NCBI GenBank assembly: GCA_965248355.1
Contig: OZ252098.1
Coordinates: 2,144,001 to 2,208,000 of the forward strand
Origin: Candidatus Latescibacterota bacterium
GTDB taxonomy: Bacteria > Latescibacterota > UBA2968 > UBA8231
Direction: 5' to 3'
Length of the DNA: 64,000 nt
The position numbers and the translations under genes were made by a program. The stretch's first letter is position 1. Each line of letters starts with the position of its first letter. Below are positions 5,375 through 32,494 of this stretch, in pieces. The notes under the pieces are model-generated. The model made no database searches. It was not told where the DNA came from and saw only the letters and a program-made list of their open reading frames with translations.

Positions 5375-5915
5375 GAAAGAGGTAGGGCTTCCACCGGTGG
5401 TCGGGGACACCCACGTAGTTGCGGATGAAGGTGATGTTGTTCGGGCGCTTCGGCTTGCGGCGCAGCCGGAGGCCCGCCTGCTCCAGCGGCCGGTCGCCCT
5501 TGCGGGCGTTGCAGGCCACGCAGGCCGTGACCAGGTTTTCCCAGGTCTCCGGACCCCTGTGCTTCCTGGGCACCACGTGGTCGATCGTCATCTTGCGATC
5601 GGCGACCCCGCAGTACTGGCACTCGTAGTTGTCGCGCTTGAAAATGTTGCGCTTGGAGAGCACCACCCGTCGCCGGGGCGCGCGGATGTAGCGCTCGAGA
5701 CGGACGACGCTGGGCACCGGAAAGGAGTCGGACACGGAGCGCACGCGCCGGTCGGCGGGCTCGACGCTGATCGCCTTGCCGCCGAAGACGAGACTCAGGG
5801 CCCGGCGGACGGAACAGACGTTGAGGGGCTCGTAGTTCTGGTTCAGCACGAGGACCGCCTCGTCGAGGACGGGGGCCTGCCTCTGGGCGGCGCTATGGTG
5901 AATGGCGCGGATCAT
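5367..5915 (-). CDS. HNH endonuclease
   Basis: VLVLNQNYEPL N-terminus, RDNYECQYCG, TIDHVVP, WENLVTACVACNARKG. Confidence 0.9.
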   Translation of the reverse strand: MIRAIHHSAAQRQAPVLDEAVLVLNQNYEPLNVCSVRRALSLVFGGKAISVEPADRRVRSVSDSFPVPSVVRLERYIRAPRRRVVLSKRNIFKRDNYECQYCGVADRKMTIDHVVPRKHRGPETWENLVTACVACNARKGDRPLEQAGLRLRRKPKRPNNITFIRNYVGVPDHRWKPYLFLD

Positions 5916-7994: not shown

Positions 7995-8023
7995 TTGACG
8001 GGATGCCTCCCCGCCGCTATACT
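7995..8023 (+). promoter_or_regulatory. sigma70-type promoter of tRNA-Lys
   Basis: TTGACG-N17-TATACT, 18 nt upstream of the tRNA. Confidence 0.8.
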
Positions 8024-8041: not shown

Positions 8042-8117
8042 GCGCCCATAGCTCAGTTGGTAGAGCGGCTGACTCTTAATCAGTTGGTCCGGGGTTCGAG
8101 TCCCTGTGGGCGCACCA
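8042..8117 (+). tRNA. tRNA-Lys (anticodon CTT)
   Basis: 76 nt; acceptor GCGCCCA/TGGGCGC, D-arm AGCTCAGTTGGTAGAGC, anticodon arm CTGA-CTCTTAA-TCAG, GTTCGAGTC T-loop, encoded CCA. Confidence 0.98.
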
Positions 8118-8242: not shown

Positions 8243-10387
8243 TCACCCCCAGGCGAAGAGGAAGTTGCCGGTGTGCCCGGTGAAGTAGTCGATGGTCAGC
8301 CAGAGGCCGACGGTCAGCATCTGACCGGCGATCATCCCCAGGAACACCCCCTGAGTGCGGCGGTAGAGGTTGACGCCTCCATACCGGCAGACCATGACCT
8401 TGATGAGCCAGGCGACGAACACGCTGGTAATGGTGTAGGACATGAGGTCCACGGCCGCCACCGGGAAGCCGATCGGGTGGAGGGGCCACCAGAGCAGGCG
8501 GTGGCGAGCCCAGTACAGCAGGGCCATGATGCCGCCGCCGCCGAAGAGGAAGCCGATGCCCGGCCAGTAGAGACCGGCGGGCTCCAGATTGCGCACGGCG
8601 TTGTCGTAGGCTACCGCCGGCCCCGCCTTGAAGAACCAGGAATCGAGGTTGACGCCGCCGTAGCGGTAGGCGACGTGGAAGATCATCCAAAGCGAGCCCA
8701 GGGTCCCGATCATCAGGGCCAGGATGAGAGCCAGGAAGACCAGCCGCCGGCTGCGCGCATCCATGTCCTCGATCAGCTTGAGGGCGTTCGTGCAGGTCGC
8801 CATGGCAAAGGAGCGGACCTCGCTGGACCAGATGTAGGCCATGGACAGATTGAGCACGCCGGTGGGACCGACGAGAGATGAACCGAGACCCATGACGACG
8901 AAGTCGGGGGCGTTGACGGGTGTCCGCAGCGTCGCCAGCCCGGCTTCGGCGATGATCCGGGTGATGCCGATGAAGATCGCCATGGCCAGGACGATGAAGA
9001 AGAGGGAGACCCAAAGCGGTGTGCCCATGATCCACAGCCACAGGGTCATGACCGCGATCCCCCCGAGGGCGCCGATCACGGCGCCGCGGTAGGAGAGGAT
9101 CTCGTCCCGGTCGTCGACGAGGGGCGCCCGGCCCAGGGCTTTGAGCCAGACCGCCTTCAAGTGCTCGCGGGCGGTCCACAGCACCCCCGCCACCAGCACC
9201 AGCAGGGCGCCCAGCCCCTCGTAGCCGATCAGGGGTGCGTCGTACACGCCGTGGAAGTGCACCTGCTCCGATCTGACCCCGACGGTCGCCAGCACGCTCT
9301 TCTGGATCCTGCCGAGCAGGTAGAACACCCACACGCTGCCCGATATCCTCGTGTCGATGAGGTAGGAGAAGCCGGTCAGGGCGAAGTTGACCTTGCCGCC
9401 CAGGTACGGTATCGGCAGGTGTATGGAGACCATGGGAATGGAGGGGTCGTAGCTCGACATGGCCCTCAGGCTGCCGGCGATGAAGGGGATGGCCATGCCG
9501 ATCCACACGGACGGACGCCTGAAGAAGCCGTTCACCAGCCTGTTCTCGTCCTCGCCGCGGATCATGGCCAGACCGACCTGGGCGATCGGATAGCCCAGCC
9601 GCTCCCGCTCCATCCACTGGCGCCGCAGGATTACGGCGATCGAGATCATGCAGACGTACAGGGCCAGCAGGAAGACGGCCCACCACATCAACGGCTCGAC
9701 CCAGGCGCCGTAGGGGATGCTCTGGCCGGGCCGGGAGATGCCCTCGTAGAACAGGGCGTTCCCGGCGCCGTCGTCTACCAGGATATCATGCTCGGGGAAG
9801 TGGGGGAAGAGCTTCTCCCGCCACTGGTTCTCCGGAGAGGCGTAGTAGAAGATGGCGGTGAGGGAGGGCAGGATCAGCTCGGTCAGGCCCATGGTGCACA
9901 CGGCCGAGACCATGGCCAGCATGGCATAGACCATGATCAGCTCCGCCCGGTTGAGGGCCAGGCTGCGACCGGACCACGCCAGCGGCACGTTGCCGAGGGC
10001 GCAGAGCAGGGCGAAGGTGGAGAAGATCAGCCCGGGTGAATGCGCATCGACATCGCTCAGGGGCCAGTAGGCGTAGAGCCAGGCAGCCCCCAGGGCGATG
10101 GCGAAGGCGAGGGCCGCCCCCTTGCTGCGCGCGGCCAGCTTGAAGGCCAGGTTGAGGATCCCGATCAGCACGACGAAGAGGAAGATGGCCCCCGGGGTGC
10201 TGATGTCTGCAGCCAGGTAGGCGCCCTTGATGATCATGTTGCTGTAGGGAGCGCTGACGGCGAGGAAGAAGCTCAGGAAGCTCCCCACGCAGAACCCCCG
10301 CCACGTCAGGCGGTGGCGCGATTCGAGGAGGGGCTCGGAGCGCGACCTCAGGTGCTCGCGGTAGCTCGGGGCGATTTCCTTTTTCAC
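8243..10387 (-). CDS. Polytopic inner-membrane protein, DUF6785/DUF6784-like (putative transporter)
   Basis: 714 aa with many TM segments; motifs ELIMVYAML, ILRRQWMERERLGYPIAQV, RIIAEAG, WWPLHPIGF, RYGGVNLYRR. Confidence 0.75.
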   Translation of the reverse strand: MKKEIAPSYREHLRSRSEPLLESRHRLTWRGFCVGSFLSFFLAVSAPYSNMIIKGAYLAADISTPGAIFLFVVLIGILNLAFKLAARSKGAALAFAIALGAAWLYAYWPLSDVDAHSPGLIFSTFALLCALGNVPLAWSGRSLALNRAELIMVYAMLAMVSAVCTMGLTELILPSLTAIFYYASPENQWREKLFPHFPEHDILVDDGAGNALFYEGISRPGQSIPYGAWVEPLMWWAVFLLALYVCMISIAVILRRQWMERERLGYPIAQVGLAMIRGEDENRLVNGFFRRPSVWIGMAIPFIAGSLRAMSSYDPSIPMVSIHLPIPYLGGKVNFALTGFSYLIDTRISGSVWVFYLLGRIQKSVLATVGVRSEQVHFHGVYDAPLIGYEGLGALLVLVAGVLWTAREHLKAVWLKALGRAPLVDDRDEILSYRGAVIGALGGIAVMTLWLWIMGTPLWVSLFFIVLAMAIFIGITRIIAEAGLATLRTPVNAPDFVVMGLGSSLVGPTGVLNLSMAYIWSSEVRSFAMATCTNALKLIEDMDARSRRLVFLALILALMIGTLGSLWMIFHVAYRYGGVNLDSWFFKAGPAVAYDNAVRNLEPAGLYWPGIGFLFGGGGIMALLYWARHRLLWWPLHPIGFPVAAVDLMSYTITSVFVAWLIKVMVCRYGGVNLYRRTQGVFLGMIAGQMLTVGLWLTIDYFTGHTGNFLFAWG

Positions 10388-10570: not shown

Positions 10571-12280
10571 TCAGCTACCACCCTCCTGTTGTACCAGGGC
10601 TCTCAGGTTCTCTTCGTGGATCTTGACCTGGGGCTCGTACTGTTGCCGCAATTCGCCCAGGAACCGGAAGAAGGCCGCATCGCGCTTCCGCCGCAGGACC
10701 ATGGCCCGGGCTCGCGTCGCGACCTCGGCGAAGGGCTTCGGGCCGCCTCCGAGGGTCGACTCGACGACCCTGAACACGGAATGGTAACGGTCTTCTGACG
10801 CCGCACCGGGGATCACGACCTGGCGGGCCGGCACCTCCACTTCGATGGGACCCAGCAGGTCCCCCGGCGCGGCTCCCCGGGCGGCTTCGAACAGGGCCTC
10901 GTGCCCTTCTCTCTGATACCAATGGAGGTGGAATCTCCCGGTGTCTGGTATGGGCATGCGCCGCAGGGTGTGCTGCTGTGCCAGGACCCGCAGATCCTCA
11001 CCGCGCTCGATCCGGCCCCGGAGCGCGACCGCTTCTTCGCGTGTCGCGACCAGGATTTCGTCCAGCGTCAGGGCCTCCTGGGGGACGAAGCTCTGCGGAT
11101 TCCGGGCGTGGAAGCGCCGCGCCTCGGCCTCGTCCACCTGCACGTCGCCCGTCACCTTCTTCCTGATGACCGCCAGCAGGCGTTCCTGCTCTCTGGCCTG
11201 GCGCCAGGCGACCATCTCCTTCTCGCGGTCGATTCCGGCATTGTGAGCGGCCTGCATGGCCAGCGCGCGGGGAACCAGGACCCACTCCCCAAACCACCGC
11301 ACCTGCTCTCGCACATCTCCCGAGAACTCCCGGTAGTTCTCCCGGGACGAGTCGACGAACTCTCCCACCGTGATGGTGCCGCCGTCGAACTCGTAGAGTA
11401 CCGTGCCGCGCTCCACCTCGGAGAACGTGTGTCCCCCGCTCTCCAGACGCGCGGCGAGAAACTCGAAACCGTCTACTCGGGGCCGCACGTCCAGAGCGCC
11501 CCGCAGTTCCCGGCCAAGCTCCATGGACCGGAAGCCGGCCTTCTCCCGGTGGAGCTCGGCCTCCACCACACTCCGCACCCGTTCGAGGGGAACAGGAACC
11601 TCGTCCATGACCTTGAAAACGCCGTAGGTGCCGTCCGGCAGGGGTATGGGTTCGGTGATCTGACCCTTCTCGAGGGGGAAGACCTTTTCCTGCATGACGG
11701 CCAGGGGCATCTGGTCCCTGGTGGCGGACCCCGCGTAGCGGCCGCCCTGTTCCGCCGTCGGACGGTGGGTCGAGCGCTGCCGCGCCAACTCCCCGAAATC
11801 GGCGCCGCTCTCCAACAGGCGCACGATCTCCTCGGCCTCTTCCCTGCTCTCGACCACGATCTTGCCCGCCTTGACCGCGCGGTTCCGTCCGGTCTTCAGG
11901 TAGTGGTCGTGGATTTCCTGATCTTCGAGCGTGATCTTCGCGTCCACTTCCCGGGCCAGGAACTCCTTCACCAGCCGTTCGGTCCATTCGCGGTCCAGCT
12001 TGCGGCGCATGGCGGGGTCGCGGTCCCATCCCCGCGCTGCCGCTTCCTGAATGAGGATCTCCTTGTCGATCAGGGCCTGCAGATGCTGCCGTCGGCCTTC
12101 GATGCCCGCCTCCTTGGACCTCAGGCTTTCGGCCAGGCGCTCCTCGTAGCGGCGCAGCTGCGCCGCGTGAATGCGGGTCTCTCCCACCTCGGCCAGCACC
12201 GGGCCATGCGAGTCTCCCCCACAACCCGACAGGACCGCCCCCAGAGCCAGGACCAGCACCGATGTGGCAGGTCCCGTCAC
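10571..12280 (-). CDS. Parvulin/PpiC-type peptidyl-prolyl isomerase lipoprotein (two PPIase-like domains)
   Basis: Lipobox LSGC; IVVESREEAEEIVRLLESGADFGELARQRS and ILVATREEAVALRGRIERGEDLRVLAQQHT; SurA-like N-domain (LQALIDKEILIQEA). Confidence 0.85.
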   Translation of the reverse strand: MTGPATSVLVLALGAVLSGCGGDSHGPVLAEVGETRIHAAQLRRYEERLAESLRSKEAGIEGRRQHLQALIDKEILIQEAAARGWDRDPAMRRKLDREWTERLVKEFLAREVDAKITLEDQEIHDHYLKTGRNRAVKAGKIVVESREEAEEIVRLLESGADFGELARQRSTHRPTAEQGGRYAGSATRDQMPLAVMQEKVFPLEKGQITEPIPLPDGTYGVFKVMDEVPVPLERVRSVVEAELHREKAGFRSMELGRELRGALDVRPRVDGFEFLAARLESGGHTFSEVERGTVLYEFDGGTITVGEFVDSSRENYREFSGDVREQVRWFGEWVLVPRALAMQAAHNAGIDREKEMVAWRQAREQERLLAVIRKKVTGDVQVDEAEARRFHARNPQSFVPQEALTLDEILVATREEAVALRGRIERGEDLRVLAQQHTLRRMPIPDTGRFHLHWYQREGHEALFEAARGAAPGDLLGPIEVEVPARQVVIPGAASEDRYHSVFRVVESTLGGGPKPFAEVATRARAMVLRRKRDAAFFRFLGELRQQYEPQVKIHEENLRALVQQEGGS

Positions 12281-15183
12281 TCTCTCAATCCGGCGTATAC
12301 GGTGAGATAGGACAGGCCGCTGGTCTCCGACCGGTCTTTGTGGGCGAAGGTGTCGATCTTCCGCCTGTCCACACGAATCCCCATCGTGGCCATCAGCCGG
12401 TATCCCAGGTAACTGCTCGCATTGGCCAGCTGCAGGGCGAGGGACAGCTCATGGAAGTCCCCGGTGGGATCTCCCGGATTCAGGCCGGCTGCGGGGTCGT
12501 CATCGAAGGCCACCTCCCGCTGGGCGAAGTCGCGGAAGATGACCTGCTCCAGGCCGACGATCACCATGCTGTGTCTCAACACCGGGATGTCCAGCCGCAG
12601 GGAGGCCATGCCGGCCCACTCCTTGCGCTCGAAGACCCGGTCGTTCAGGAGCCACTCGGTGTTGAAGGGCGTATCGTCCAGGAACAGCTCCTGCTTGACG
12701 CGCGGACGGAGTTGGATTCCGTTGCCCAGAGGATAGAGCCAACCCAGTTTGTTGATCAAACCGAGCCGCCGGGTGTGCTTCGAGATCTTCCGGCCCTTCC
12801 GGTCCACGGTGAGCTTCTCCCGCTGCCGCAGCACCTCGTGGATCAGCTTGTTCTCGGAGTTGATGCCGGCATTGCCCAGGCGCTCGAAGGCCAGCGACAG
12901 CTTGTTGACCCAGGTATCCGGCAGGCCCAGCGGATCCGGGACCGGGGTCATGCCCGCGTCCCTGAACCTTCCGTGCAGCCATTGGAAGAGGTCGTCCGCG
13001 ATATCGTCCTCGACCCGCTTCAACATGTTGAAGACAGCCAGCTCTCCCACGCCGGGATAGCTGCGCTCGAAGGCGAAAAGGGCATAGCTGCTCACGTTGG
13101 TCTCGCCGGTCGAGGGACGGCGCACCCGCTGGTGGCCCGCGGTGACCTTGGCGCCCGGCATGATCCACGCACCGCCGTACACGTTGTATCCGCGGCGGTC
13201 ACGCTTGTAGGGGTAGTCGGGTTCGTCATCGTTCTCGAAACGGTCCCCCCAGCCGTTGTTGTTCATGTCGATGCCGAAGAGGTACTCGGGCCGGTCCACG
13301 CTGTAGCGCAGGAAGGGCTCGGCGTAATCGGGCACACTGTTGGGCCGCACCCGGGTGTTGTTCTGGTTGAAGTCGGAGATGAAATCGTTGTTCTCGTCGA
13401 GGCCGGGAAAGACCGCCTCGTCCCCGTACCCCTCGAACCCGCGCAGGATGCCGGTGCCCCGTTCCTCTTGTGTCCGGCCGTCGTCGAATATGCGCTGCTG
13501 GTCGTTCTTGCGGTCGTTGTCGTCGTTGTCGTCGACGAAGTCGTAGAGGTAGCGGGCATTGGCCAGAGGCGTGTCCGCGTAGTTGACCCGGCCCGCCGAG
13601 TCCAGGAACCGCATGGTGGTCGAGTATTCGGCGTCCATGCCGAAGGCCTCGCCGAAGAGGTAGTACGGATGGAAGTCCCTGGCCACGTTGACCATCCACC
13701 CTGCGGCGGAGGGATTTCCCCGAAGGCCCGATGAGGTGGTGTGAGTGGTCCGGCTCACGTCGGGGTACTTGCGGTACTGGTGGTTCACGTTGAACTCGCC
13801 GTAGAGCCTGAACCCGGCCAGATCGTCGGCCTCCACCGTAAAGCCGAGGACCTGGGTGGCGGTGGGCAGTCCGTAGTCAAAGACCACGGCGCCCAGGTTG
13901 GAATGGTCCTTCACATTCCCCGGCGCCCGCGCCATGGTCCTGAAGACCGGGCGCGGTTCGTAGAGGGCGTTGTCGGTCTCCTGGTCGGAAGTGACTTCGA
14001 CCTTGTAGTCGTTGCTCAGGACCATCCGGAACCGGACCTTCCTGATGTTGTTGATCACATCGGCCAGGGGCACCACCGTTTCCAGATCGTCGCGGACCTC
14101 CGGGTCCAAGTCGGCCAGCACGTAGTCCAGTCGGATCCGCGCCAGTTCGCCGTCCCCTTCGGCTACCAGGAAGCCATCCCGAGGGACGCCTCCCGAAACC
14201 CTCGGATAGAAGCCGATCCGGCTGCCCACCAGCACCGTGTCCAGCTCTCCTACCCGGGTCGTGATCTCGATCTCGTGGGCGAAGAGGACGGGACTTCCCT
14301 CGCCGTCTTCCGGGGAATCGTCGGTAATCCGCACGGTGATCCGGTTGATGCGCGCCCCCGCCTGGTGGGAGCTCAGCCTTCCGGTGTATGGACTCCCGTC
14401 GAAGGGCCGGGTCGAGCTCCGCGCGTTGTGGGCGTTCACGAAGGTTCCGCCGAGGCGCGCGAAGTCGGCCACGTTCCAGACGGCCCGGAGACCGACGAGA
14501 GTGGTGAATTCGTCGATGAAACTGGACGTTGGCTCGACCAGCGGGACATTGATTCTGGACATGAGGGCAGTGGCCGAGCCGTGATCCGACATGTAGTCGA
14601 ACTGGACCCCGTTGAAGGCCGTCTTCCGAAGGGTCATGGGCGTCAGGGTCGTGCTGATCTCGTCGCCGATGCTCACCCGGAAGTGGTGCTGCCCCTTGGC
14701 GTCCGAAGAAACCACGAGGGAGCCGAGAAGGTCCTTGTACTGTTCGGTCTTGTGGAGCAGGTTCCCCTCGGAGGTCCGGGGCCGGCTCTGCTGCCAGTCG
14801 TAGATCAGCCAGCCTCGGGTCAGGAGCCTGCCGTAGAGATCGTAGTGATAGTCGCCCTCCTGATCGGTGGCCCGGTAAGGCCAGTAGCGCTCGAGGGCAT
14901 AGTTGGTCCCCTCCTCCCAGCGCCAGCGGTAGCGGTTGGCGGCCTCCTGGGGCAGGTACCATTTCCTGAGGGATGGAACGAAGGCGTCCGGACGCAGGCT
15001 GGGAGCCGCCGGGTAGTAGATCGCCCGGCCGCTCTCGCGGATGCCCAGGAGATTCCCGTAGCCCGACTGGGGCGCGCCGGGATCGACGCCCAACGTCACC
15101 GCGAGCCCGACGAGGATGAGGATTCGGGACCGGCCTGCGGGCCCCCCGGGCCGCACGGTGCGCGCTTCGGAGGGCTCGACCAT
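12277..15183 (-). CDS. Large uncharacterised secreted / putative outer-membrane protein A (~968 aa)
   Basis: ATG overlaps upstream stop (TGATG); hydrophobic signal region; D/N-rich motifs; C-terminal amphipathic strands ending LTVYAGLRE; paralog of 15183..17999. Confidence 0.8.
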   Translation of the reverse strand: MVEPSEARTVRPGGPAGRSRILILVGLAVTLGVDPGAPQSGYGNLLGIRESGRAIYYPAAPSLRPDAFVPSLRKWYLPQEAANRYRWRWEEGTNYALERYWPYRATDQEGDYHYDLYGRLLTRGWLIYDWQQSRPRTSEGNLLHKTEQYKDLLGSLVVSSDAKGQHHFRVSIGDEISTTLTPMTLRKTAFNGVQFDYMSDHGSATALMSRINVPLVEPTSSFIDEFTTLVGLRAVWNVADFARLGGTFVNAHNARSSTRPFDGSPYTGRLSSHQAGARINRITVRITDDSPEDGEGSPVLFAHEIEITTRVGELDTVLVGSRIGFYPRVSGGVPRDGFLVAEGDGELARIRLDYVLADLDPEVRDDLETVVPLADVINNIRKVRFRMVLSNDYKVEVTSDQETDNALYEPRPVFRTMARAPGNVKDHSNLGAVVFDYGLPTATQVLGFTVEADDLAGFRLYGEFNVNHQYRKYPDVSRTTHTTSSGLRGNPSAAGWMVNVARDFHPYYLFGEAFGMDAEYSTTMRFLDSAGRVNYADTPLANARYLYDFVDDNDDNDRKNDQQRIFDDGRTQEERGTGILRGFEGYGDEAVFPGLDENNDFISDFNQNNTRVRPNSVPDYAEPFLRYSVDRPEYLFGIDMNNNGWGDRFENDDEPDYPYKRDRRGYNVYGGAWIMPGAKVTAGHQRVRRPSTGETNVSSYALFAFERSYPGVGELAVFNMLKRVEDDIADDLFQWLHGRFRDAGMTPVPDPLGLPDTWVNKLSLAFERLGNAGINSENKLIHEVLRQREKLTVDRKGRKISKHTRRLGLINKLGWLYPLGNGIQLRPRVKQELFLDDTPFNTEWLLNDRVFERKEWAGMASLRLDIPVLRHSMVIVGLEQVIFRDFAQREVAFDDDPAAGLNPGDPTGDFHELSLALQLANASSYLGYRLMATMGIRVDRRKIDTFAHKDRSETSGLSYLTVYAGLRE

Positions 15184-17999
15184 CACAGTCCGGCATATAC
15201 GGTTATGAAGGTGGTGCTCAATTCGCGGCCCCGGTCTTCCTTCACCGACTCTCCCAGGCCACCGGCGGTGACGAACTCGTCCCAGACCCGGGTGTACATG
15301 ATGCCGAACCGGGTGGTCAGGACGTAGCCCTGGTATTCCCCGACGTTGGACCACTGGGCGGCCAGCACCAGGCTGCGGGAGTCACCCGTGGCCCCCACCC
15401 GGTTGGCGGCGAGGGCCTCCTTCTCGTCCAGCATCAGATCCGCAACCCGGTGGTATTCCAGCCCGGCCTCGAGAGAGGACGCGCTCAACATGGGATGCCG
15501 CAGCAGCAGGATGCCTGTTCCCGTCCACTCCTGGCGCTCGTCGCCGCCCAGGATGAACGGCGTCTGGTTCAGGTACTCGCTCTTGATCCTGGGTTGGACC
15601 TCCAGTCCGCCGACGCGGCAGGTGTAATCCGCTTTGTTGATGAGCCCGAAGAAGTGGGTGCGATCCTCGAGTATGGGACCGACGCCCCGCTCGTAGGCAT
15701 CTCCCTGCTGAGCATACAGGTCGTACTTGATCTTGGTAATCGTCTTCAGCTCGCCCACCGGGCGATAATTCAGCTCCAGGAAGGTCGAGTTCACCCAGGT
15801 GTCGCGGGCCGGGAGCAGGTCCTCGATGTTGGCCAGGTTGCCGGTGGCGAGACCGAGGTAAGGAGTCATCTCCCGGCGGTCGTCGGGTATGGTGTCCCGG
15901 GTCCGCTTGAGCATGTCGTAGACCCGGACCACGCCGAACCGGGGATCGTCGTGGGTGAAGGTGATCAGCCCGTAGGTCGTGTGGTTCTTGCGATCGGAAG
16001 ACAAGGAGCTGACCCCCAGGCGCCCCAGGGCGGCCCTGATGTCGGGCCTCACGAAAGCGCCGCCGTACACATTGTACCCCCGCCGGTCCTTCTTGTAGGG
16101 GTAGTCGGCCAGATCGTCGTTCTCGAAGCGGTCCACCCAGTTGTTGTTGTTCAGGTCGATGCCGAAGAGGAACTCGGGCCGGTCCGAATGGTAGCGGAAG
16201 AAGGGCTCCTCGTAGTCGGGGATGCGATTCGGCAGAATGGCGCTGTCGTTCTGATTGAAGTCCGACACGAAGTCGTTGTTCTCGTCCCATCCCGGGAACA
16301 CGTTGGCATCACCGGAGCCGTGCTCAAACCGGGCCCAGTCGGAAAACCGGTCCTGGTCGTCATTGTCCTCGACGAACTCGTAGAGGTGCCGGCCCGAATG
16401 GTCGTAGAGGATGTCCCCCTGGCTGTCTACGAGGTACGCCGTGGTGGAGTAGTCGGGGTCCATGCTGAAGGCCTCTCCGAAGGCGAAGAACGGATAGGCC
16501 ACCTTCGACAAATTGACGATCAACGCCTCTGCCTCTCTGGAATAGCTGGACAGAGCGCGGTCTGCCTGGGCCAGGGTGGGGTTGGGGAACTGGTGATAGG
16601 ACCGGCTGATGGCCAGTTCGGCGTAGGCATCAAGACCGATCACATCCTTGACGTCCATGGTGACTCCATAAACCATGTTCGCCGTGGGCAAGCCGTATTC
16701 GAAGACGAGGCGGGTCTGGTTGGAGTTGTCCGACACATTGCCCTCGGCCCGGGCCACCTCGAAGAGCGCCGGCGCGAGCTCGTCGATATCTTCGCCGCTG
16801 AGCGGCAGGTTGGGCATGGGGCGCAATCCGGTCTGCCGGTCGGACCATACCTGGATGCGGTAATCGTTGGCCACCACCAGCTCGAAGGTGATCTTCGTGA
16901 TGGTGTTCGGACGCGGCCCGGTGTAGGAGATGTCGTTGAGGTCGTAACTGATTACGATCTTCTCGTCCCCGTCCGCGCTCTGGAAGCCCTCGTGGTGGAA
17001 TCCGCCGCTGACCACGGGCCACTTGGCCGGATCGGTGACCATCGCCCGCTGGCGGATCTCCTCCCGCCTCCCGGTGGCCGGATCCTCCGTGGTCATGATG
17101 ATCTCGTGCGAGAACAGGGCCGCGCCGGCCACGCCGTCCTCCGGTGAATCGTCGCTCAGAACAAGGGCCAGGCCGCGCACCGGGACCGCCCCCTGGTTGG
17201 CAGCCAGCGTGCCTTTGAGCGGGTTCCGCTCGAAGGCGTCCTCGAAGGTCCGGGAGTTGTGGGCGTTGACCAGAGTCGCCCCCACTTCCACGAAGTCCCC
17301 AACCTCGGCGACGACCCGCCCCCCCATCAGGTTGGTGCCATTGGTCACCGTCACGGGCGCGTTCCTGGGCGTGGTACCTGCCACCGCAAGGCTGACCCGG
17401 GAGAACAGCAGCGTGCCCCGGTACTTGTCCGAGGCGAAGTCCATCTGTATGCCGTTGAAGTTGGGCTTGGAGAAGGTGAGCGGCGTCAACGCCGTTCTGA
17501 TCTGATTCCCCGCCGTTATGGCATAGTGAAACTGGCCCCTGGAGTCCGAGCTCACCAGGACGTTGTTGAACCAGTTGGCGAACCTGGGATCCTTGTAGAG
17601 CGAGGAACCGAACTGCCCGGGCTGGTTCTGGTTCCAGTCGTAGACCAGCCACCCCCGGGTCAGGTAGTTGCCGTAGAGATCGTAGAAGGGGTCGCCCTCG
17701 CGGTCGGTGCCTACGTACCGCTGGTACTGTTCGCGGGCATAGTTGGAGTACTCCCACTGCTGCCAGCCGTACAGCTCGTAAAGCTCCTGTGGCACGTACC
17801 ACTTCTTGAGGGCCGGATCGAGGGCGTCGAAGATGACCCCGGGTCCCCTGGGTTCATAGGTTATCTCCCCCCCTCGCCGCTCTCCGAGACGCCGGACGGA
17901 GGACTGACCCCACACATGGGATACCTGAAGTGTGGCGATGAGCAGGAACACGCTCAGCACTCCCCCCGCCTTGCCGGTCGTCGACATCAAGGCCCTCAT
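15183..17999 (-). CDS. Large uncharacterised secreted / putative outer-membrane protein B (938 aa)
   Basis: Signal peptide (VLSVFLLIATLQVSHVWG-Q); shares KWY.PQE, YDLYG..LTRGWL.YDW, LTP.T..K..FNG.Q.D, DDSPEDG, FPG.DENNDF.SDFNQN with protein A; ends ITVYAGL. Confidence 0.85.
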   Translation of the reverse strand: MRALMSTTGKAGGVLSVFLLIATLQVSHVWGQSSVRRLGERRGGEITYEPRGPGVIFDALDPALKKWYVPQELYELYGWQQWEYSNYAREQYQRYVGTDREGDPFYDLYGNYLTRGWLVYDWNQNQPGQFGSSLYKDPRFANWFNNVLVSSDSRGQFHYAITAGNQIRTALTPLTFSKPNFNGIQMDFASDKYRGTLLFSRVSLAVAGTTPRNAPVTVTNGTNLMGGRVVAEVGDFVEVGATLVNAHNSRTFEDAFERNPLKGTLAANQGAVPVRGLALVLSDDSPEDGVAGAALFSHEIIMTTEDPATGRREEIRQRAMVTDPAKWPVVSGGFHHEGFQSADGDEKIVISYDLNDISYTGPRPNTITKITFELVVANDYRIQVWSDRQTGLRPMPNLPLSGEDIDELAPALFEVARAEGNVSDNSNQTRLVFEYGLPTANMVYGVTMDVKDVIGLDAYAELAISRSYHQFPNPTLAQADRALSSYSREAEALIVNLSKVAYPFFAFGEAFSMDPDYSTTAYLVDSQGDILYDHSGRHLYEFVEDNDDQDRFSDWARFEHGSGDANVFPGWDENNDFVSDFNQNDSAILPNRIPDYEEPFFRYHSDRPEFLFGIDLNNNNWVDRFENDDLADYPYKKDRRGYNVYGGAFVRPDIRAALGRLGVSSLSSDRKNHTTYGLITFTHDDPRFGVVRVYDMLKRTRDTIPDDRREMTPYLGLATGNLANIEDLLPARDTWVNSTFLELNYRPVGELKTITKIKYDLYAQQGDAYERGVGPILEDRTHFFGLINKADYTCRVGGLEVQPRIKSEYLNQTPFILGGDERQEWTGTGILLLRHPMLSASSLEAGLEYHRVADLMLDEKEALAANRVGATGDSRSLVLAAQWSNVGEYQGYVLTTRFGIMYTRVWDEFVTAGGLGESVKEDRGRELSTTFITVYAGL

Positions 18000-20183
18000 T
18001 CAGTACGCCACTTCGACGACGGTGGCGGCCGTCTCGGCGCTGGCCGCGCTGTGCACCTCTACGTGAGCCAGGTAGATCCCGGGCGGCACGAGCTCGCCAC
18101 GGCCGTTGGTGCCATCCCATGGGATCGACCAGTGACCGCCTCCCTGCTCGCCGGAGAAGAGGCGGCGAACGAGGTGGCCGGCCAGATCGAGCACCCTCAC
18201 CTCAACGGCCACGGGACCGATCACGCGCGACAGGTCGTAAGAGATGCGGGTCCGGTCGTTGATCCCGTCGCCGTTGGGGCTGAAGGGCCGCGGTCCGGCC
18301 CGGGTATTGATCAGGACGTGGCCGCCCGAAAGGGGCACGTCCACCGCCAGCACCCGCGGGTCCGCCGTTCCCGCCGGAGGAAAGGCGGCGTCCTCGGGGC
18401 CCAGGTGGGCCGCGTTGCCGGCGAGGATCTTCTGACCGCTGATCCCGATCCCGGTGCGGCCGGCCCACCCGGGAAAGGTCGTCCCGTATCTGAGGACGCG
18501 GCAGCGAAACCGGATCCTCAGGACGGCGGCCTCGCCGGCCTCCAGGTCGCTGACCGTTATGGCCGGGAAGCGTACCCGGAACCGCCGTTCCTCCACCGCC
18601 TCGATGCCGAAGTCGGCGGCCGGATCGGTGGGCAGGGCCGACGAGCTCAGATCCTGAGCGGAGAAGTCCGCCGCCTCGCTGCGGTCGTCGTGGAACAGGA
18701 CCTGGATCGACTCGATCGCTTCGACCCGGACCGGCGTGGCGATCTCGAAGGTGTCGAAGCCGCTGTCCCGGCCCGGCCGTATCCGGGTCGGCATGACCGC
18801 GTAGGTGAAGGTTTCCGGAACGGCCAGCTCGGCCTGACGAGGGTAGATCTCTCCGACGATCCGCTCGGCCGCCGGGGGAAACACCGTGAAGGCCAGCTGC
18901 CCAACCCCGGCCGCTGCCGCCAGGTCCCGGCTCACCAGTTCGACCCGGACCTGGAAATAGCGCCGCGGGCCCGGAGTGGTGACGACCGCCCCGAGCTGCT
19001 CGTCATCGATGTTCTCGACCGTGATGCCGCTGGTGCCTTCCTGCCCATACGGAGCCGACCACGGCGTCCAGGCGTCCGGATCGTCCCGGATCTCGCCCCG
19101 TGGCTTCGTGCCGAGGTAGTCCTCCAGGCTCAGAGCCACCCGGTTCTTCTCCGCCAGCGGCAGCGCCCGGTAGGCTCGCAGCGCATCGAGCGGCTCCAGG
19201 TCATCCAGGGCGATCTGCTCTCCCTCGGCCGTGGTGGCCACCGCGCCCTGCTTCCAGGGGAGATTCACCGAACCATCGGGACCCGGGCGGGTGAATTCCA
19301 GGGGTGTATCGTCATGCCCGGCGCGCGTCGCAATGCGGGCCTGCGCCAGCCCTTCGGGACCCAGGGCCTCCTCGATCCACCGGATCTTGCCCCACACCCC
19401 CCAGTCGTCCCCCAGGTCGTAGACATTGGAGATGTATCGGGCCTCGGGCACGAACCCCGCCCCGTATACCCGGAACTCGGCGATTTCGAAGCCGACCACC
19501 GTCTGCGACTTCAGTCGCAGGAAGCGGAGGTACTGGGGGGGGATCCGCAGGTCGACCACGGGCCGGTCGTTCTGCAGCTCCAGCTTGAAGCTGGTCAGCA
19601 CCGGCCGGCCGGACTCGTCTCTGGAATTCTCGCTGCCGTCGTTGACCAGAAGCTCGTAGGCGCGCAGAAAGTCGTTCTGGAACGGAAAGTCGGGCGTCTC
19701 GAAACCCGGAGCGTTCCTCGGAAAGAACTGGATCCGGTTCACCCCGAAGCGCGCCCCCAGGTCAACGTCGAACATGGCCCCGAAGGCGAGGACCTGCGGC
19801 CCCCCGGCTTCGCCCTTCTGGGTGAAAGCCGTCTCGAGATCGCCGTCCACCATCAGGAGCAGCTCCTCGGCGATGCCGCTCGTCAAGATGTTCGGCGAGG
19901 TCAGGGTGGCTGCGGCCGCGAAATTCCTGGTGGAGTCGGCTCTCTGCGGGAAGATCCAGCCCGGTCTTCCGGGAACGTCGAAGTCGACCACATCGCCCGG
20001 GGTGTTGGTGATCTCGGCCTCGTCGACACCGATCTCCACCGCGGCCGGGATCTGGCCGCCGCCGCCGTTCCAGGGTTGGCCGCCGGCGCCGCCCAGCACC
20101 CGGCTGTCGGCAGCCAGATTCTGGACCATCAGGCAGATTGTCCCGAGCAGGCCCAGGCAGAGGCTGATCGGCTGCGGTCTCAC
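18000..20183 (-). CDS. Secreted protein with discoidin/F5-8-like domain and C-terminal FlgD-Ig / gliding-motility-CTD-like domain
   Basis: AGGAGG RBS before GTG 20183; signal peptide; VDGDLETAF..FDVDLG..EIAEFRVYG; FSPNGDGIND...WDGTNGRGELVPPGIY...VEVAY*. Confidence 0.8.
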   Translation of the reverse strand: MRPQPISLCLGLLGTICLMVQNLAADSRVLGGAGGQPWNGGGGQIPAAVEIGVDEAEITNTPGDVVDFDVPGRPGWIFPQRADSTRNFAAAATLTSPNILTSGIAEELLLMVDGDLETAFTQKGEAGGPQVLAFGAMFDVDLGARFGVNRIQFFPRNAPGFETPDFPFQNDFLRAYELLVNDGSENSRDESGRPVLTSFKLELQNDRPVVDLRIPPQYLRFLRLKSQTVVGFEIAEFRVYGAGFVPEARYISNVYDLGDDWGVWGKIRWIEEALGPEGLAQARIATRAGHDDTPLEFTRPGPDGSVNLPWKQGAVATTAEGEQIALDDLEPLDALRAYRALPLAEKNRVALSLEDYLGTKPRGEIRDDPDAWTPWSAPYGQEGTSGITVENIDDEQLGAVVTTPGPRRYFQVRVELVSRDLAAAAGVGQLAFTVFPPAAERIVGEIYPRQAELAVPETFTYAVMPTRIRPGRDSGFDTFEIATPVRVEAIESIQVLFHDDRSEAADFSAQDLSSSALPTDPAADFGIEAVEERRFRVRFPAITVSDLEAGEAAVLRIRFRCRVLRYGTTFPGWAGRTGIGISGQKILAGNAAHLGPEDAAFPPAGTADPRVLAVDVPLSGGHVLINTRAGPRPFSPNGDGINDRTRISYDLSRVIGPVAVEVRVLDLAGHLVRRLFSGEQGGGHWSIPWDGTNGRGELVPPGIYLAHVEVHSAASAETAATVVEVAY

Positions 20184-24874: not shown

Positions 24875-25783
24875 CTACTGCGTGAACGCGGCCTTGACCC
24901 GGCCCCAGCTCTCGGCTTCGACGGCCGTGCCGAACTCGACATCCTCCACCGGAGCCAGCAGGAAGTCGGTGGATACCGACGAGGTTTGCCAGACGGTTGC
25001 CTCGCCATTCAGAATCCACTGATCTTTCGAGTTGTCCTCCGTATTGTCATAGTCGGTGATCTCCCAGTTCAGACCGATGATCTCACCTTCTACCATGTCG
25101 TGCACCACACTGCCGTCCGGGTCATCCCACTGCAGGTTGTCCCACAACGTGAGCATCCACTCCGCCTGGCCGGTGACGTCGGCGGCGTTGAGCTCGGCGG
25201 CATCCGACGAGTACCCATTGTCGGCCCACGGCAGTTCGCCGGTCCAGGTAGCCTGGGACTGCCAGTACCAGGCCCACGCCGTCGCCTCGTTGTTCACGTT
25301 CGGCGACCCAGGATCGATATCCGGGAGGCGGAAGTGGATATTCTGGGCGAAGCGCGAGCCGTCCTCCGGCGAATCGCCATTGAAGGAGTCTTCGCCGCCG
25401 TGGTCCCCGTCAACGTTCATCTCGAAGCTGTCGGGTAAGTTCGCTGCGGCATCGAGACCGGAGACGTCCCGCTTGCGGAAGTCGTCGAACACCTGGTGGT
25501 GCATATAGAGACGGTCGGTGCTGGCGCTGTAACCGACGATGACCTTGCTGTTCATACTCGACAGGTCCGTCCACTGCTCGCCGGCCGGGGACGCGTAGAA
25601 CTCCGGCCCGATCCAGTAGTCCTGGGGAACCACGGACCACTCGGACAGATCCCCGTCCAGGGTCGGCTCGGCACCCGCCGGGAACTGGAACGCGAGCAGA
25701 ACCTGCCCCTCTGGCACGTGACCCCAGGCGGAAGGGGCGAAGCCCATGGTCAGGCAGAGGGCGAAAATCACTTTCTTCACCAT
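24875..25783 (-). CDS. Secreted acidic protein, CBM9/DOMON-like, with C-terminal 'TAVEAESWGRVKA' motif
   Basis: GGAGA RBS, ATG 25783, signal peptide MVKKVIFALCLTMGFAPSAWG; PTLDGDLSEW, LYMHHQVFDD, GEIIGLNWEITDYD. Confidence 0.8.
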   Translation of the reverse strand: MVKKVIFALCLTMGFAPSAWGHVPEGQVLLAFQFPAGAEPTLDGDLSEWSVVPQDYWIGPEFYASPAGEQWTDLSSMNSKVIVGYSASTDRLYMHHQVFDDFRKRDVSGLDAAANLPDSFEMNVDGDHGGEDSFNGDSPEDGSRFAQNIHFRLPDIDPGSPNVNNEATAWAWYWQSQATWTGELPWADNGYSSDAAELNAADVTGQAEWMLTLWDNLQWDDPDGSVVHDMVEGEIIGLNWEITDYDNTEDNSKDQWILNGEATVWQTSSVSTDFLLAPVEDVEFGTAVEAESWGRVKAAFTQ

Positions 25784-26116: not shown

Positions 26117-27652
26117 CTAAGGGGCAAGCTGCGCCAGGCGCGCCTCGATCGCTGCGAGCTGGCGGGCATCTCCCCGCCAGTGGGCCACCGCCGATCGATA
26201 GGCCCGCCCGGCCGCATCCGCGTTCCCCAGCTTCTCGCAGGCGTCGCCCAGGGCGAGGTAGGCCCTCGCGTTGGTCGAATCCAGCCGCAGTGCGGCCTGC
26301 AACATCTCGATCGCCTGGTCGTAGTCCCGCTGGCGGAGGTAGCACTGTCCGAGGCTCAGGCGGGCATCGACCCAATCCGGCCGGTGGCGGATCGCTGCCC
26401 TGTAGGACTGCCCGGCCTCGCCCAGGCGCCCCTGAAGCAGCCCCAAATTGCCCAGGGCGTGGTGCGCCTTGGCAAAGGTCGTGTCTACTTGCAGGGCCCG
26501 CTCGAAGGCCTGACGGGCCTGGTCCAGGCGCCCGTTCCGGACGGCGATGTAGCCGATGGTGAAATGGGCCCCGCGGGCCTCGCGCTGGCCCGGGGCCCGG
26601 GCGATCACCTGGCGGGCCAGCGCCGCCGCCTCGTCCAGGTCGCCCTGATTCAGGCAGGCATGGCTCAACCCCGCCAGGCCCCCGACATGCCCGGGCTCGC
26701 GCTCCAGGACCGCCCGGTACATTCCGATGGCCTCCTCCCACCGTCCGAGCTCGACGTAGGAGCGCCCCGCCGCCAGATAGGAGTCCAGGTCGCCGGCGGC
26801 CCTGCTCACCTGCTTCTCCAGGACGCGCGCCTGAGCGGCCCTCCGGTTCAGCTCGGCAAAGCGGTCGAGCAGTATCCGGGCCTTTTCCACGCGTCCCTGG
26901 GCGGAGTGGAGGTTGGCCAGGCTGTGGTATGCCTCGGGATAGTCCGGGTCGATCTCGCGAGCCCGGCGCAGCATTTCCCCGGCCTCCTCGTAGCGCTCCG
27001 CGTAGGTGTAGAGCACGCCGAGTTCCCGGTGGGCCTCCTTGCCGCCGGGATCGAACCTGACAGCGCGGGTCAGCATCTCCTCGGATTCTGCCAGCCGCCC
27101 CTGCAGCCGGAGGAGCCGGCCCAGGGTCCACAGCGCCCCGGCATCGGCCGAGTCCGCCGCCACGGCCCGCACCAGGGCCGCCTCGGCCCGCTCGTACGCC
27201 CCCTGCTCCTGGTGCAGACCGGCCAGGAGACGGTACGAGGGAGCCGTGCCCGGATCGATGCGCACGGCCTCTTCCAGCAGGGCGACCGCCTCCCGCTGGC
27301 GTCCCGCCTCTCCGTAGGCCACGGCCAGATTGTGGTAGGCGAGAACGAGGCTGGAATCCAGGCGAATGGCGGCCAGGTACGCGGTCTCGGCCGAATCCCT
27401 GCGGCCCAGCTTCATGTAGGCCGTGGCCAGATGGCAGTGGGCTTCCGCAGAGAGGGAGTCCAGGGCCACGGCCTGCTGATACGCGGCCAGCGCGTCGCGG
27501 TACCGGGCCTGGCGGAAATAGGTGTTCCCGAGCGTGCGGAGCCGGTCTCTCTCCGGGTCCGGCGCCGGCGATTCGGGTGCCCGGCACGCGCCCAGCCAGA
27601 TCGTCATCAGGGCAACGGCGGTGCGGCGGACCGGAACTGCGTACGAATGCAT
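26117..27652 (-). CDS. TPR-repeat lipoprotein
   Basis: ATG 27652, lipobox LGAC; many TPR units (AHCHLATAY, AYHNLAVAY, AYHSLANLH, AHHALGNL). Confidence 0.85.
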   Translation of the reverse strand: MHSYAVPVRRTAVALMTIWLGACRAPESPAPDPERDRLRTLGNTYFRQARYRDALAAYQQAVALDSLSAEAHCHLATAYMKLGRRDSAETAYLAAIRLDSSLVLAYHNLAVAYGEAGRQREAVALLEEAVRIDPGTAPSYRLLAGLHQEQGAYERAEAALVRAVAADSADAGALWTLGRLLRLQGRLAESEEMLTRAVRFDPGGKEAHRELGVLYTYAERYEEAGEMLRRAREIDPDYPEAYHSLANLHSAQGRVEKARILLDRFAELNRRAAQARVLEKQVSRAAGDLDSYLAAGRSYVELGRWEEAIGMYRAVLEREPGHVGGLAGLSHACLNQGDLDEAAALARQVIARAPGQREARGAHFTIGYIAVRNGRLDQARQAFERALQVDTTFAKAHHALGNLGLLQGRLGEAGQSYRAAIRHRPDWVDARLSLGQCYLRQRDYDQAIEMLQAALRLDSTNARAYLALGDACEKLGNADAAGRAYRSAVAHWRGDARQLAAIEARLAQLAP

Positions 27653-27774
27653 CGCGCAGTCTTCCGTTGAACCACGGGGTCTCACCGGGGCGCCGCGGCG
27701 GCTGCCCGCAGGGCCGTTTCGGAGGTCGCTGCAGAGCCCGCGGATTGGATGGCGCGCCCGGCGCCGATCTCCTG

Positions 27775-27802
27775 TAGTATAGGTCTGATAGTATAGGTCT
27801 GA
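27775..27802. repeat. Perfect tandem 14-bp direct repeat in a divergent intergenic region
   Basis: TAGTATAGGTCTGA twice (27775-27788, 27789-27802). Confidence 0.9.
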
Positions 27803-27859
27803 GCGCCCGCGCCGGGCCTGGCTCAACCGGAACCAGCGAACCCGGGGACCTGAAGCGGC

Positions 27860-28741
27860 ATGGCCGCGACGATCGGACTGAGGGGCGGCTCCTTCAGGGG
27901 CCTCCTCCTCGACAACGAGGCGAACGCCGACCGCCAGGGAAGCGGCTTCACCCCCCTGTGCCATCTGACCCACCCGGACCACAACCTCTTCCGGGACGAC
28001 GCCGTCGGCCTCAACTTCGAGCACGTCATGAACGGCGCGGCGGCCGACGACCCCCGCTCGATGTTCACCCCCCGGAAGGACCGCTGCCTCCTCCTGCCCC
28101 ACTCTCCCTGCGAGGCGTCGGTCCGCCACCCGGCCGCCGACTCCTCCTGGGGGATCGAGAGCGCGATGCGCTACCGCCTCGGGCCGGACTGCGTCGACAT
28201 GGAGTTCACCGCCCGCCTGACCGACGCACGATGCGCCCCGCTCGGATACGTCGCCTTCATGTGGGCCTCCTACATGAACCGCACCCGCGGCCGGGCGATC
28301 CACTTCTACGGGACCTGCGAAGGCGAGGAAGGCTGGCTCCGCTTCGGCGAAGACCTTCCGGACGGCCGCTTCGAGACCGGCACCGTCGCCCACGCCTCGG
28401 TCGATCCCCTCCCGTACGAAGAAGGGGCCGAAACCCTCAACATCGTCGAAGATCCCCGCAAGCGCTTCCTCCTGCCGTTCTACTACGGCTTGGCGAAGGA
28501 CCGGATGGTCTACGCGATGATGTTCGATCGGGAGGCGCCGATCCGCTTCGCCCTGTGGAACTTCATCCGGGACGAGAGCGGACGGCCGGACCCGCACAGC
28601 CCGGCCTGGGACTGGCAGTATGTCATCCGCGACCCGGAGATCGGCCGGACCTACGGTTACCGGGCGCGGCTGCTGTACCGGCCGTTCGTCGATCGGGAAG
28701 CGGTGCGGCGGGCGTATGAGGAGTGGGCGGCCGAACTATAG
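27860..28741 (+). CDS. Hypothetical protein (possible aldose-epimerase-like beta-sandwich)
   Basis: 293 aa with coding-like codon usage; GLNFEH, FMWASYMN, PFYYG, PAWDWQY motifs; fold is a guess. Confidence 0.65.
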   Translation: MAATIGLRGGSFRGLLLDNEANADRQGSGFTPLCHLTHPDHNLFRDDAVGLNFEHVMNGAAADDPRSMFTPRKDRCLLLPHSPCEASVRHPAADSSWGIESAMRYRLGPDCVDMEFTARLTDARCAPLGYVAFMWASYMNRTRGRAIHFYGTCEGEEGWLRFGEDLPDGRFETGTVAHASVDPLPYEEGAETLNIVEDPRKRFLLPFYYGLAKDRMVYAMMFDREAPIRFALWNFIRDESGRPDPHSPAWDWQYVIRDPEIGRTYGYRARLLYRPFVDREAVRRAYEEWAAEL

Positions 28742-32461: not shown

Positions 32462-32494
32462 CCTGAACAAGATACACAGCCCGAGGAGAGTGAC

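Follow-up and report, generated by a model that had tools for sequence, protein, structure and literature searches.

Within a 64,000-nucleotide stretch of the genome of a Candidatus Latescibacterota bacterium (assembly GCA_965248355.1, contig OZ252098.1, positions 2,144,001 to 2,208,000; this whole stretch is called the window below), two adjacent genes, here named A and B, encode diverged paralogs from a large and unnamed protein family that is almost confined to genomes labelled Latescibacterota. As judged from the family tree, A and B are anciently diverged and co-inherited subunits, and their sequence features indicate that both are probably very large outer-membrane beta-barrels. They are encoded beside a SurA-like prolyl isomerase and three surface proteins (P1, P2 and P3) with C-terminal sorting tails of a class apart from the other tails of the genome. 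We work here with the explanation, quite possible and far from assured, that A and B form a hetero-oligomer that serves these surface proteins as a dedicated partner in the outer membrane. Latescibacterota and their relatives are uncultured bacteria of wide distribution, whose cell surface is almost unstudied.

Both genes lie on the minus strand, in a long run of minus-strand genes with a strong third-position GC bias (the window has about 69% G+C, and the G+C content at third codon positions in A is 0.87), and both were delimited from their open reading frames (ORFs) and translations. Gene A (15183..17999) begins with ATG and encodes 938 residues, and gene B (12277..15183) encodes 968; they represent the first-position (p1) and second-position (p2) subfamilies described below. 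The stop codon of A and the start codon of B overlap as TGATG (context ctgTGATGgtc), such that the ATG of B at 15183 has one base in common with the TGA of A. When the two proteins are compared by BLASTP, 351 of 954 aligned residues are identical (37%; 52% positives; 552 bits; E = 0.0), and the alignment is co-linear from residue 38 of A and residue 46 of B to the last residue of each, far above chance. The full-length paralogy proposed in a first-pass annotation, which had been made from the letters of the window and its ORFs, is thereby borne out, and the motifs quoted there (KWYVPQE/KWYLPQE, YDLYG..LTRGWL.YDW, VNAHN, DDSPEDG, F[ED]YGLPTA, GLINK and TVYAGL) are all present in the translations. 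The N-termini of both proteins resemble signal peptides, which in A comprises residues 1-31 (...VWG/QS) and is followed by a conserved aromatic region at about 60-150 and then by amphipathic beta segments from about 150 to 938.

Neither A nor B has a match in Pfam, NCBIfam or the PDB, and searches of the PDB with A, with the family profile and with a distant member (P0200) returned only chance-level matches (E 0.12-0.61). A hidden Markov model of the family, run against the proteome of the same genome, found no distant relatives, with three matches at E 2-3.8. In a protein atlas consulted for A and for its homolog P0083, the nearest named cluster is DUF6029 (0.89), which we treated only as a lead; the DUF6029 family maps to another gene of the genome. 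Named homologs are all called “hypothetical protein”, and Pfam detects no Plug or TonB-receptor domain in either protein, so the descriptions of the family as unclassified and as lacking a TonB plug both hold.

The family is large. Among 8,000 candidates examined from a collection of 5.8 billion proteins there are 832 homologs at E <= 0.001, and an exhaustive search gave matches to 711 cluster representatives. The organism labels are those of Latescibacterota or Gemmatimonadota metagenome-assembled genomes, plus a single one labelled Gammaproteobacteria; the titles of the 79 best genomic loci read Latescibacter* in 66 cases and are of the Gemmatimonad* type in 13. In a sample of 121 genomes of the phylum, each at least 80% complete, the family is patchily distributed (69 genomes), being present in all 44 genomes of the window's own taxonomic family and in none of the 46 from two sister families. 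Counts of candidates at first look reach 92 per genome. The 5.5-Mb genome that holds the window has 31 matching stretches, corresponding to about 25 full-length barrel genes and some broken copies, and these are grouped in five triples, about three pairs, whose second gene is broken in one case, and five singles. The broken copies are found at G000:C1:359546-362532 and 2469301-2473399; one is the B-type partner of an A-like gene (364194-367007), its sequence being spread over three reading frames, and the other is in two halves with a 423-residue ORF between them. Fused forms of at least 1,643 residues were looked for and none was found, which is weak evidence. We found no paper describing the family or its gene cassette in a literature search that reached few subscription journals.

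That A and B may work together is indicated by the way in which their relatives are inherited. Gene calling around relatives at the 79 loci gave 54 pairs, 24 singles and one triple, and two of the apparent singles also have a second gene (frameshifted in one of them), which brings the number of loci with a pair to 56, spread over 39 of the 42 distinct assemblies. In a FastTree phylogeny of 160 proteins, from which rows under 750-800 residues were left out, the first-position proteins group in one clade (62 rows, support 95) and the second-position proteins in another (57 rows, support 99), and the label of first or second position, followed over the 110 rows belonging to 55 pairs, changes a single time on the tree. 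The phylogeny that the first-pass annotation had suggested as a check thus gives reciprocally monophyletic, mirror-image clades, as would be seen if A and B were two always-paired lineages. The distance matrices of the two clades correlate with r = 0.98; B-type proteins are more diverged than A-type proteins in 100% of comparisons, and the two types differ consistently in length in five loop regions. Tight packing of the kind seen in the TGATG overlap is also kept, with a gap of 30 nucleotides or less in 41 of 48 adjacent pairs and an overlap in 20 pairs, though one pair has an unassigned ORF between the first and second barrel genes. A single old duplication, after which both copies were strictly retained and strictly kept in order while diverging in parallel, would be expected of obligate partners, though it does not prove a complex.

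A similar picture emerges for the triples. In the five triple arrays of the window's own genome, the genes at positions 1, 2 and 3 fall into three separate clades with support of 99-100. In a distant family of the phylum, a linked pair falls into triple clades 1 and 2, and unlinked singles fall into clade 3. The strict order of A and B, and of 1, 2 and 3, points to hetero-oligomeric outer-membrane barrels, for which we know of few precedents. The more specific terms of the first-pass annotation, which spoke of a heterodimeric pore or translocon with a 1:1 stoichiometry suggested by the coupled genes, are not supported as stated, since members of the family are also found singly and in fixed triples, and since the isomerase gene is found between the A-type and the B-type gene in five further pairs.

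The same annotation had taken A and B for outer-membrane beta-barrels, and we consider it likely that they are, and very large ones, because of their signal peptides, composition, amphipathic beta segments, antiparallel covariation stripes and weak local matches to the SlpA barrel profile. Past the signal peptide there is no helical membrane segment in either protein, and cysteine makes up 0.1% of A and 0% of B; signal peptide, amphipathic strands and lack of helical membrane segments are features of outer-membrane barrels in general. Hydrophobicity averaged over the alignment reveals more than 20 amphipathic segments of beta type in residues 150-938, with a two-residue periodicity along 790 residues. 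The annotation had placed the hydrophobic strands in the C-terminal third, where amphipathic segments do occur, but they also occur elsewhere, from about residue 150 to the end.

Covariation among 371 aligned members (effective number 161) was analysed by a mean-field method, with stripes counted only where they do not overlap; a first run with a reduced alphabet was dominated by gap artefacts and was set aside. There are 8 antiparallel stripes versus 0 parallel ones at a score of 16, and 14 versus 6 at a score of 14, and the strong stripes chain successive segments into what would be a meander of hairpins (in A numbering 158-187, 224-246, 300-372, 372-431, 447-461 and 459-494, then 657-678, 672-702, 693-741, 752-791 and 791-804). 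Both ends lie on amphipathic segments in 9 of 14 stripes, compared to 38% expected by chance. A non-barrel insert after the VNAHN motif had also been suggested, and this is supported only in part, by a variable, gap-rich stretch at about 305-370 of A between antiparallel covarying segments (300 with 372); the best-conserved insert is the acidic block at 540-640.

This block, residues 540-640 of A, is the best-conserved part of the whole family. It is rich in Asp and Asn and contains an EF-hand-like acidic loop of 12 residues at 615-626 of A (16122..16157, minus strand), to which residues 639-650 of B (13234..13269, minus strand) are aligned by BLASTP, with conservation across the family. Among the 371 aligned members, position 1 of the loop is Asp in 371, position 3 Asn in 365, position 5 Asn in 370, position 9 Asp in 348 and position 12 Glu in 370, a spacing that we take to be that of the EF-hand calcium-loop pattern.

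Several results weigh against a barrel. No clear sign was seen of closure of the sheet, with the first strand pairing with the last, antiparallel and parallel covariation between the N- and C-termini being about equal at scores of roughly 12-13. The C-terminal aromatic beta-signal is absent, A ending in ...TVYAGL and B in ...TVYAGLRE, and a terminal Phe, Tyr or Trp is found in only 34 of 374 members of the family. Stand-alone members of the third triple subfamily from the distant family of the phylum (L122, L123 and L125; G026 and G031) do end in an aromatic residue (...LGW or ...VGW). Fold and size are moreover predictions from sequence. Such points, together with the fact that a calcium-loop-like block is the best-conserved part, would fit A and B being secreted or periplasmic calcium-binding proteins rich in beta structure, for instance adhesin or matrix components, that act with the P proteins. 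We regard this as improbable, given the amphipathic periodicity along 790 residues, the antiparallel meander and the recurrent matches to the SlpA profile. A SurA-like chaperone encoded alongside, dedicated to the cassette, also argues against it, and A and B carry no sorting tail, unlike the secreted proteins of the genome.

The neighbouring genes, which the first-pass annotation had passed over, constrain function best and tell as much as A and B do themselves. Directly upstream of A, on the same strand, is the gene for P3 (18000..20183; 727 residues from a GTG at 20183), whose stop codon immediately precedes the ATG of A (TGAATG). It is preceded by the genes for P2 (20201..22726, minus strand; 841 residues) and P1 (22771..24735, minus strand; about 654 residues). 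The three are paralogs of 650-840 residues. Each begins with a signal peptide and ends in a domain of about 95 residues, which weakly matches FlgD_ig and CHU_C and constitutes the sorting tail; that of P3, similar to FlgD Ig domains and to type B tails, ends in VAY, and those of P1 and P2 belong to the same class. P2 in addition has an F5/8 type C (discoidin) domain (Pfam F5_F8_type_C, 4.2e-10, with FlgD_ig and CHU_C weak).

The association of barrel genes with this family of tailed proteins is specific and reciprocal. In 73 of the 79 loci the gene next upstream of the first barrel gene encodes such a tail, and all 205 tail-bearing proteins of these loci make up one family, which we call the P family, with three clades. 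The members immediately upstream are mostly found in one clade of 74 (63 of 72), to which P3 belongs. Tail-bearing ORFs number 114 in the window's own genome. For 27 of the 30 P-family ORFs there is a barrel gene no more than 10 kb away, and each of the 29 barrel ORFs has a P gene at no greater distance. Across the phylum sample the P family occurs in 53 of the 121 genomes, all from families that hold barrel genes, and in none of the 52 genomes without them.

The tails themselves set the P proteins apart. The genome has core genes for type IX secretion (T9SS), namely a 2,067-residue ORF that matches SprA_N, two matches to PorU that exceed the cut-off and, adjoining one of them, a PorV-like gene. 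A literature search on Latescibacter* with T9SS found nothing. In a tree of the last 100 residues of 114 tails, the label P or non-P changes once, and 28 of 29 P tails are in a clade of 28 with support 91. The last residue of P tails is Tyr (16 of them have VAY), while other tails end in LLR, LLK and similar, and the motif [ST]PN.D occurs in 21 of 29 P tails versus none of 85 others. The type A model TIGR04183 (cut-off 23 bits) is passed by 16 of 20 other tails, these being the top of the list of 85 and not a random draw, and by none of 6 P tails. Against the Pfam model CHU_C the P tails score 17-33 bits, on either side of the cut-off of 27. A profile of the P family searched against the PDB finds FlgD Ig domains over the tail (5.8e-9), and its matches to carbohydrate-binding modules of the discoidin type are no better than chance (E 0.26-0.66). 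P tails are therefore a class apart, similar to type B, as compared with the type A tails of the same genome.

On the other side of B is the gene for a parvulin-type, SurA-like prolyl isomerase (10571..12280, minus strand), a lipoprotein with an LSGC lipobox and Pfam matches to Rotamase, Rotamase_2 and SurA_N_3, the start of which overlaps the stop of B (GTGA). Of seven such genes in the genome, six are no more than 5 kb from a barrel gene, and 62 of the 79 loci have one. At the opposite end, the tight run begins with the gene for a small secreted protein (24875..25783, minus strand; 302 residues, no family match), which has relatives in 61 of the 79 loci. Its wider family numbers 28 ORFs in the own genome, only 7 of them near barrel genes.

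Judging from the packing, A, B, the three P genes and the isomerase gene are most likely expressed from one operon. Contigs from RNA libraries (four runs from two studies, 90-99% alike) cover parts of the A, B and P genes, and one of them (17886-18500) bridges the junction of P3 and A, though such contigs prove neither transcription nor a single transcript and the stretches that they leave uncovered are uninformative. Scans for promoters and terminators gave totals not above those of shuffled sequences (3 versus 1.9 and 11 versus 8.7). Over the small secreted-protein gene the contigs reach a depth of 22-100, compared to about 3-13 over the rest of the cluster, in all four runs, but contigs cannot rank expression.

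Further upstream lies a gene for a tetratricopeptide repeat (TPR) protein (26117..28597, minus strand; 826 residues by the longest ORF; matches to TPR families), which keeps its position in close relatives (L021-L023, L028-L033). It may be transcribed separately from the run, because it is followed by a terminator-like hairpin (26115-26096), in a region where the total of such sites is not above that of shuffles. In the triple arrays (e.g. L009/L010, G000:C1:1570001-1600000) the neighbourhood is a different one, with a type-A-tailed protein and a discoidin P protein upstream and, downstream, a 1,085-residue TPR protein with a BamD/YfiO-like part, a DUF4159 protein, an ExbB-like protein and a BamB-like PQQ propeller.

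In having giant barrels encoded together with a lipoprotein isomerase, a TPR protein and cargo-like P proteins, the region echoes the SprA-PPI-SprE assembly of T9SS (PPI being its prolyl isomerase), and the P tails stand apart from type A tails. One may ask whether A and B could be a private translocon, a small counterpart of SprA that works with the isomerase and the TPR protein as the export gate for the P proteins, in line with the pore or translocon of the first-pass annotation. We think this unlikely. With a SprA-like gene, PorU and PorV of its own, the genome has a general system by which the P proteins, whose tails resemble those of T9SS substrates and FlgD Ig domains, could be exported. 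The pair-type cassette is without motor genes, the TPR gene is perhaps on a separate transcript, and barrel genes exist that have no P neighbours.

Downstream of the isomerase gene, at a distance of 183 nucleotides, is a more loosely linked partner (8243..10387, minus strand), a polytopic membrane protein with about 12 hydrophobic segments that matches DUF6785 and DUF6784 (Pfam 6.2e-108 and 4.5e-25). The DUF6785/DUF6784 family is expanded, with 26 ORFs in the genome; its profile has no PDB relative, and we found no paper on DUF6785 in the literature search. Of the 26 copies, eight are at most 15 kb away from a barrel gene, as is 8.9% of the genome; the gene is present in 24 of the 79 loci, and in a distant genome it is also found beside barrel arrays without P genes.

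This enrichment near barrel genes, with or without P genes, might be expected if A and B were independent large channels, porin-like or specific for nutrients, with a logic like that of SlpA/OmpM or SusC/SusD and with the P proteins as co-regulated binders. The only detectable similarity of the family is to the SlpA barrel profile. An expansion to about 25 copies here and up to 92 candidates elsewhere is of the kind known from nutrient-uptake families, and one P clade has a discoidin-type sugar-binding domain. Independent channels, however, would not be expected to show a strict order and mirror trees over 55 pairs or three fixed positions in triples, and the link to one special class of tails exceeds what co-regulation would give. 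There is no plug or TonB-box domain, and DUF6785 is absent from 55 of the 79 loci. We consider uptake by such channels to be a doubtful account of the pair, although, if it were right, the barrels would be the main nutrient gates of the phylum.

We are inclined, tentatively, towards a different role, in which the hetero-oligomer of A and B is the dedicated outer-membrane partner of the P proteins, a dock or carrier and possibly a channel, with the isomerase assisting. The lipoprotein isomerase would help the giant barrels to fold, A and B would assemble with one another, and the resulting complex would receive the P proteins and hold them at the cell surface by means of their special tail. The outcome would be a lectin-like device for capture at the surface, with the wide barrel perhaps also providing a passage for captured material. 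We favour docking because there is a precedent in the type B cargo of PorP/SprF-type barrels and because a private class of tails is always found beside the barrel genes.

Part of the evidence does not fit docking well. Though similar to type B tails, P tails fall short of the type B model TIGR04131 (cut-off 35 bits), with five of six scoring 16.4-19.7 bits (P1 the 19.7) and the sixth giving no match. Among the 69 barrel-holding genomes, 16 have no P match at E 1e-30, though the loci of one or two such lineages contain weaker P relatives. In some lineages barrel genes have no P-family neighbour at all (for instance the arrays of genome G023 and the singles of another family that end in Trp), and docking of P proteins thus cannot be the only role of the barrel family. 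The numbers of genes vary, with three P genes for one or two barrels and about two tail-bearing genes for three barrels; a model of one barrel per cargo was rejected on these numbers. The isomerase gene interposed in five pairs belongs here as well.

Docking, export and channel functions are not mutually exclusive. A bolder proposal, to which we give little weight at present, is that singles, pairs and triples form homo- and hetero-oligomeric barrels of a second machine for handling proteins in the outer membrane, a gate and dock for Tyr-ending tails that acts independently of SprA or downstream of it and displays lectin-like trimers. Were that the case, the family would be a new branch of type IX-like secretion and anchoring and not another porin. 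If the barrels dock or export lectin-like proteins, the type IX principle of a cargo with its cognate barrel would extend beyond Bacteroidota, and with a much larger barrel of several subunits.

A few further features of the window were noticed. The ORFs at 30710-34705 (minus strand; FG-GAP/ASPIC domains) and 31862-34753 (plus strand; right-handed beta-helix) overlap on opposite strands, and are probably two divergent genes with ORFs over-extended in G+C-rich DNA, because the parts matched by Pfam do not overlap. The only Rfam match is a tRNA-Lys (CTT) at 8042-8117 (plus strand), shortly downstream of the DUF6785 gene; a site resembling a promoter is found at 7995-8023, and RNA-library contigs pile up at this place. 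An HNH endonuclease gene (5367-5915, minus strand) is found between the gene for the glycine-cleavage H protein and scpA, in a run that otherwise encodes housekeeping proteins (EF-P, GcvH, ScpA, ScpB, cytidylate kinase and an S1 protein).

Among known systems, the closest in genomic logic is that of the PorP/SprF barrels. Type B cargo in Bacteroidota depends on and binds cognate PorP/SprF barrels encoded next to it, by which it is anchored or shuttled, e.g. SprB with SprF and PG1035 with PorP, according to excerpts of two reports (PMC9143113; PMC12618676), the first of which describes PorP/SprF as FadL-type barrels of 14 strands. As in those systems, the gene for a surface protein with a tail other than type A adjoins a barrel gene, and there are many such sets per genome. 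There are also differences. A and B have no match to PF11751 and, with about 940-970 residues, are about three times the size of PorP/SprF (about 300-400 residues); they also come as fixed pairs or triples with a calcium-loop block. A genome-wide search for PorP/SprF gave no match, but its positive controls were silent too.

SlpA/OmpM of Deinococcus and Thermus (PF21620, SlpA_C) is the only family with detectable similarity to the barrel family. Local matches occur in 8 of 50 aligned members and in 3 further relatives, always at profile positions of about 200-330 of 656, and score at most 30.2 bits against a gathering cut-off of 35; A and B themselves give none. Searched against the DNA of the genome, SlpA_C scores at best 16.9 and 12.9 bits, with the Thermus and Deinococcus controls detected. 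SlpA is a homotrimer of barrels with 28 or 30 strands, and the connectors of this type have an N-terminal SLH domain and a coiled-coil stalk (excerpt of PMC9388160). In size A and B would be comparable to a 28-30-strand barrel. This likeness raises the thought that they are envelope tethers linking the outer membrane to the cell wall, which seems to us most improbable. Pfam finds no SLH or other N-terminal domain and no coiled-coil stalk in A, B or the 50 aligned members. SlpA homotrimers are moreover the product of one or two genes, whereas barrel genes occur here by the dozen in cargo cassettes, which does not fit a structural role.

SprA is a protein of about 2,400 residues. Neither A nor B matches its SprA_N domain (PF14349), the sole match in the genome being the separate 2,067-residue ORF, and nothing in the pair-type cassette suggests a link to the motor. 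What is alike is that a very large barrel is combined with a prolyl isomerase and with a TPR protein, alongside proteins that carry a C-terminal sorting domain: in the T9SS translocon, SprA forms a barrel of 36 strands and is joined by the TPR lipoprotein SprE and by a prolyl isomerase subunit whose function is unknown (excerpt of PMC10994853).

With SusC/SusD there is a likeness in that the gene for a large barrel stands beside that for a surface substrate-binding protein, tens of times per genome. However, A and B have no Plug or TonB-dependent barrel domain, the 21 Plug matches of the genome all lying elsewhere; the putative binders, which carry T9SS-type tails, are not lipoproteins of the SusD kind, and a glycoside hydrolase was not seen among the genes of the cassette. 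Though members of none of the families tested, A and B are on these comparisons like PorP/SprF in their genomic logic and like SlpA in their probable fold.

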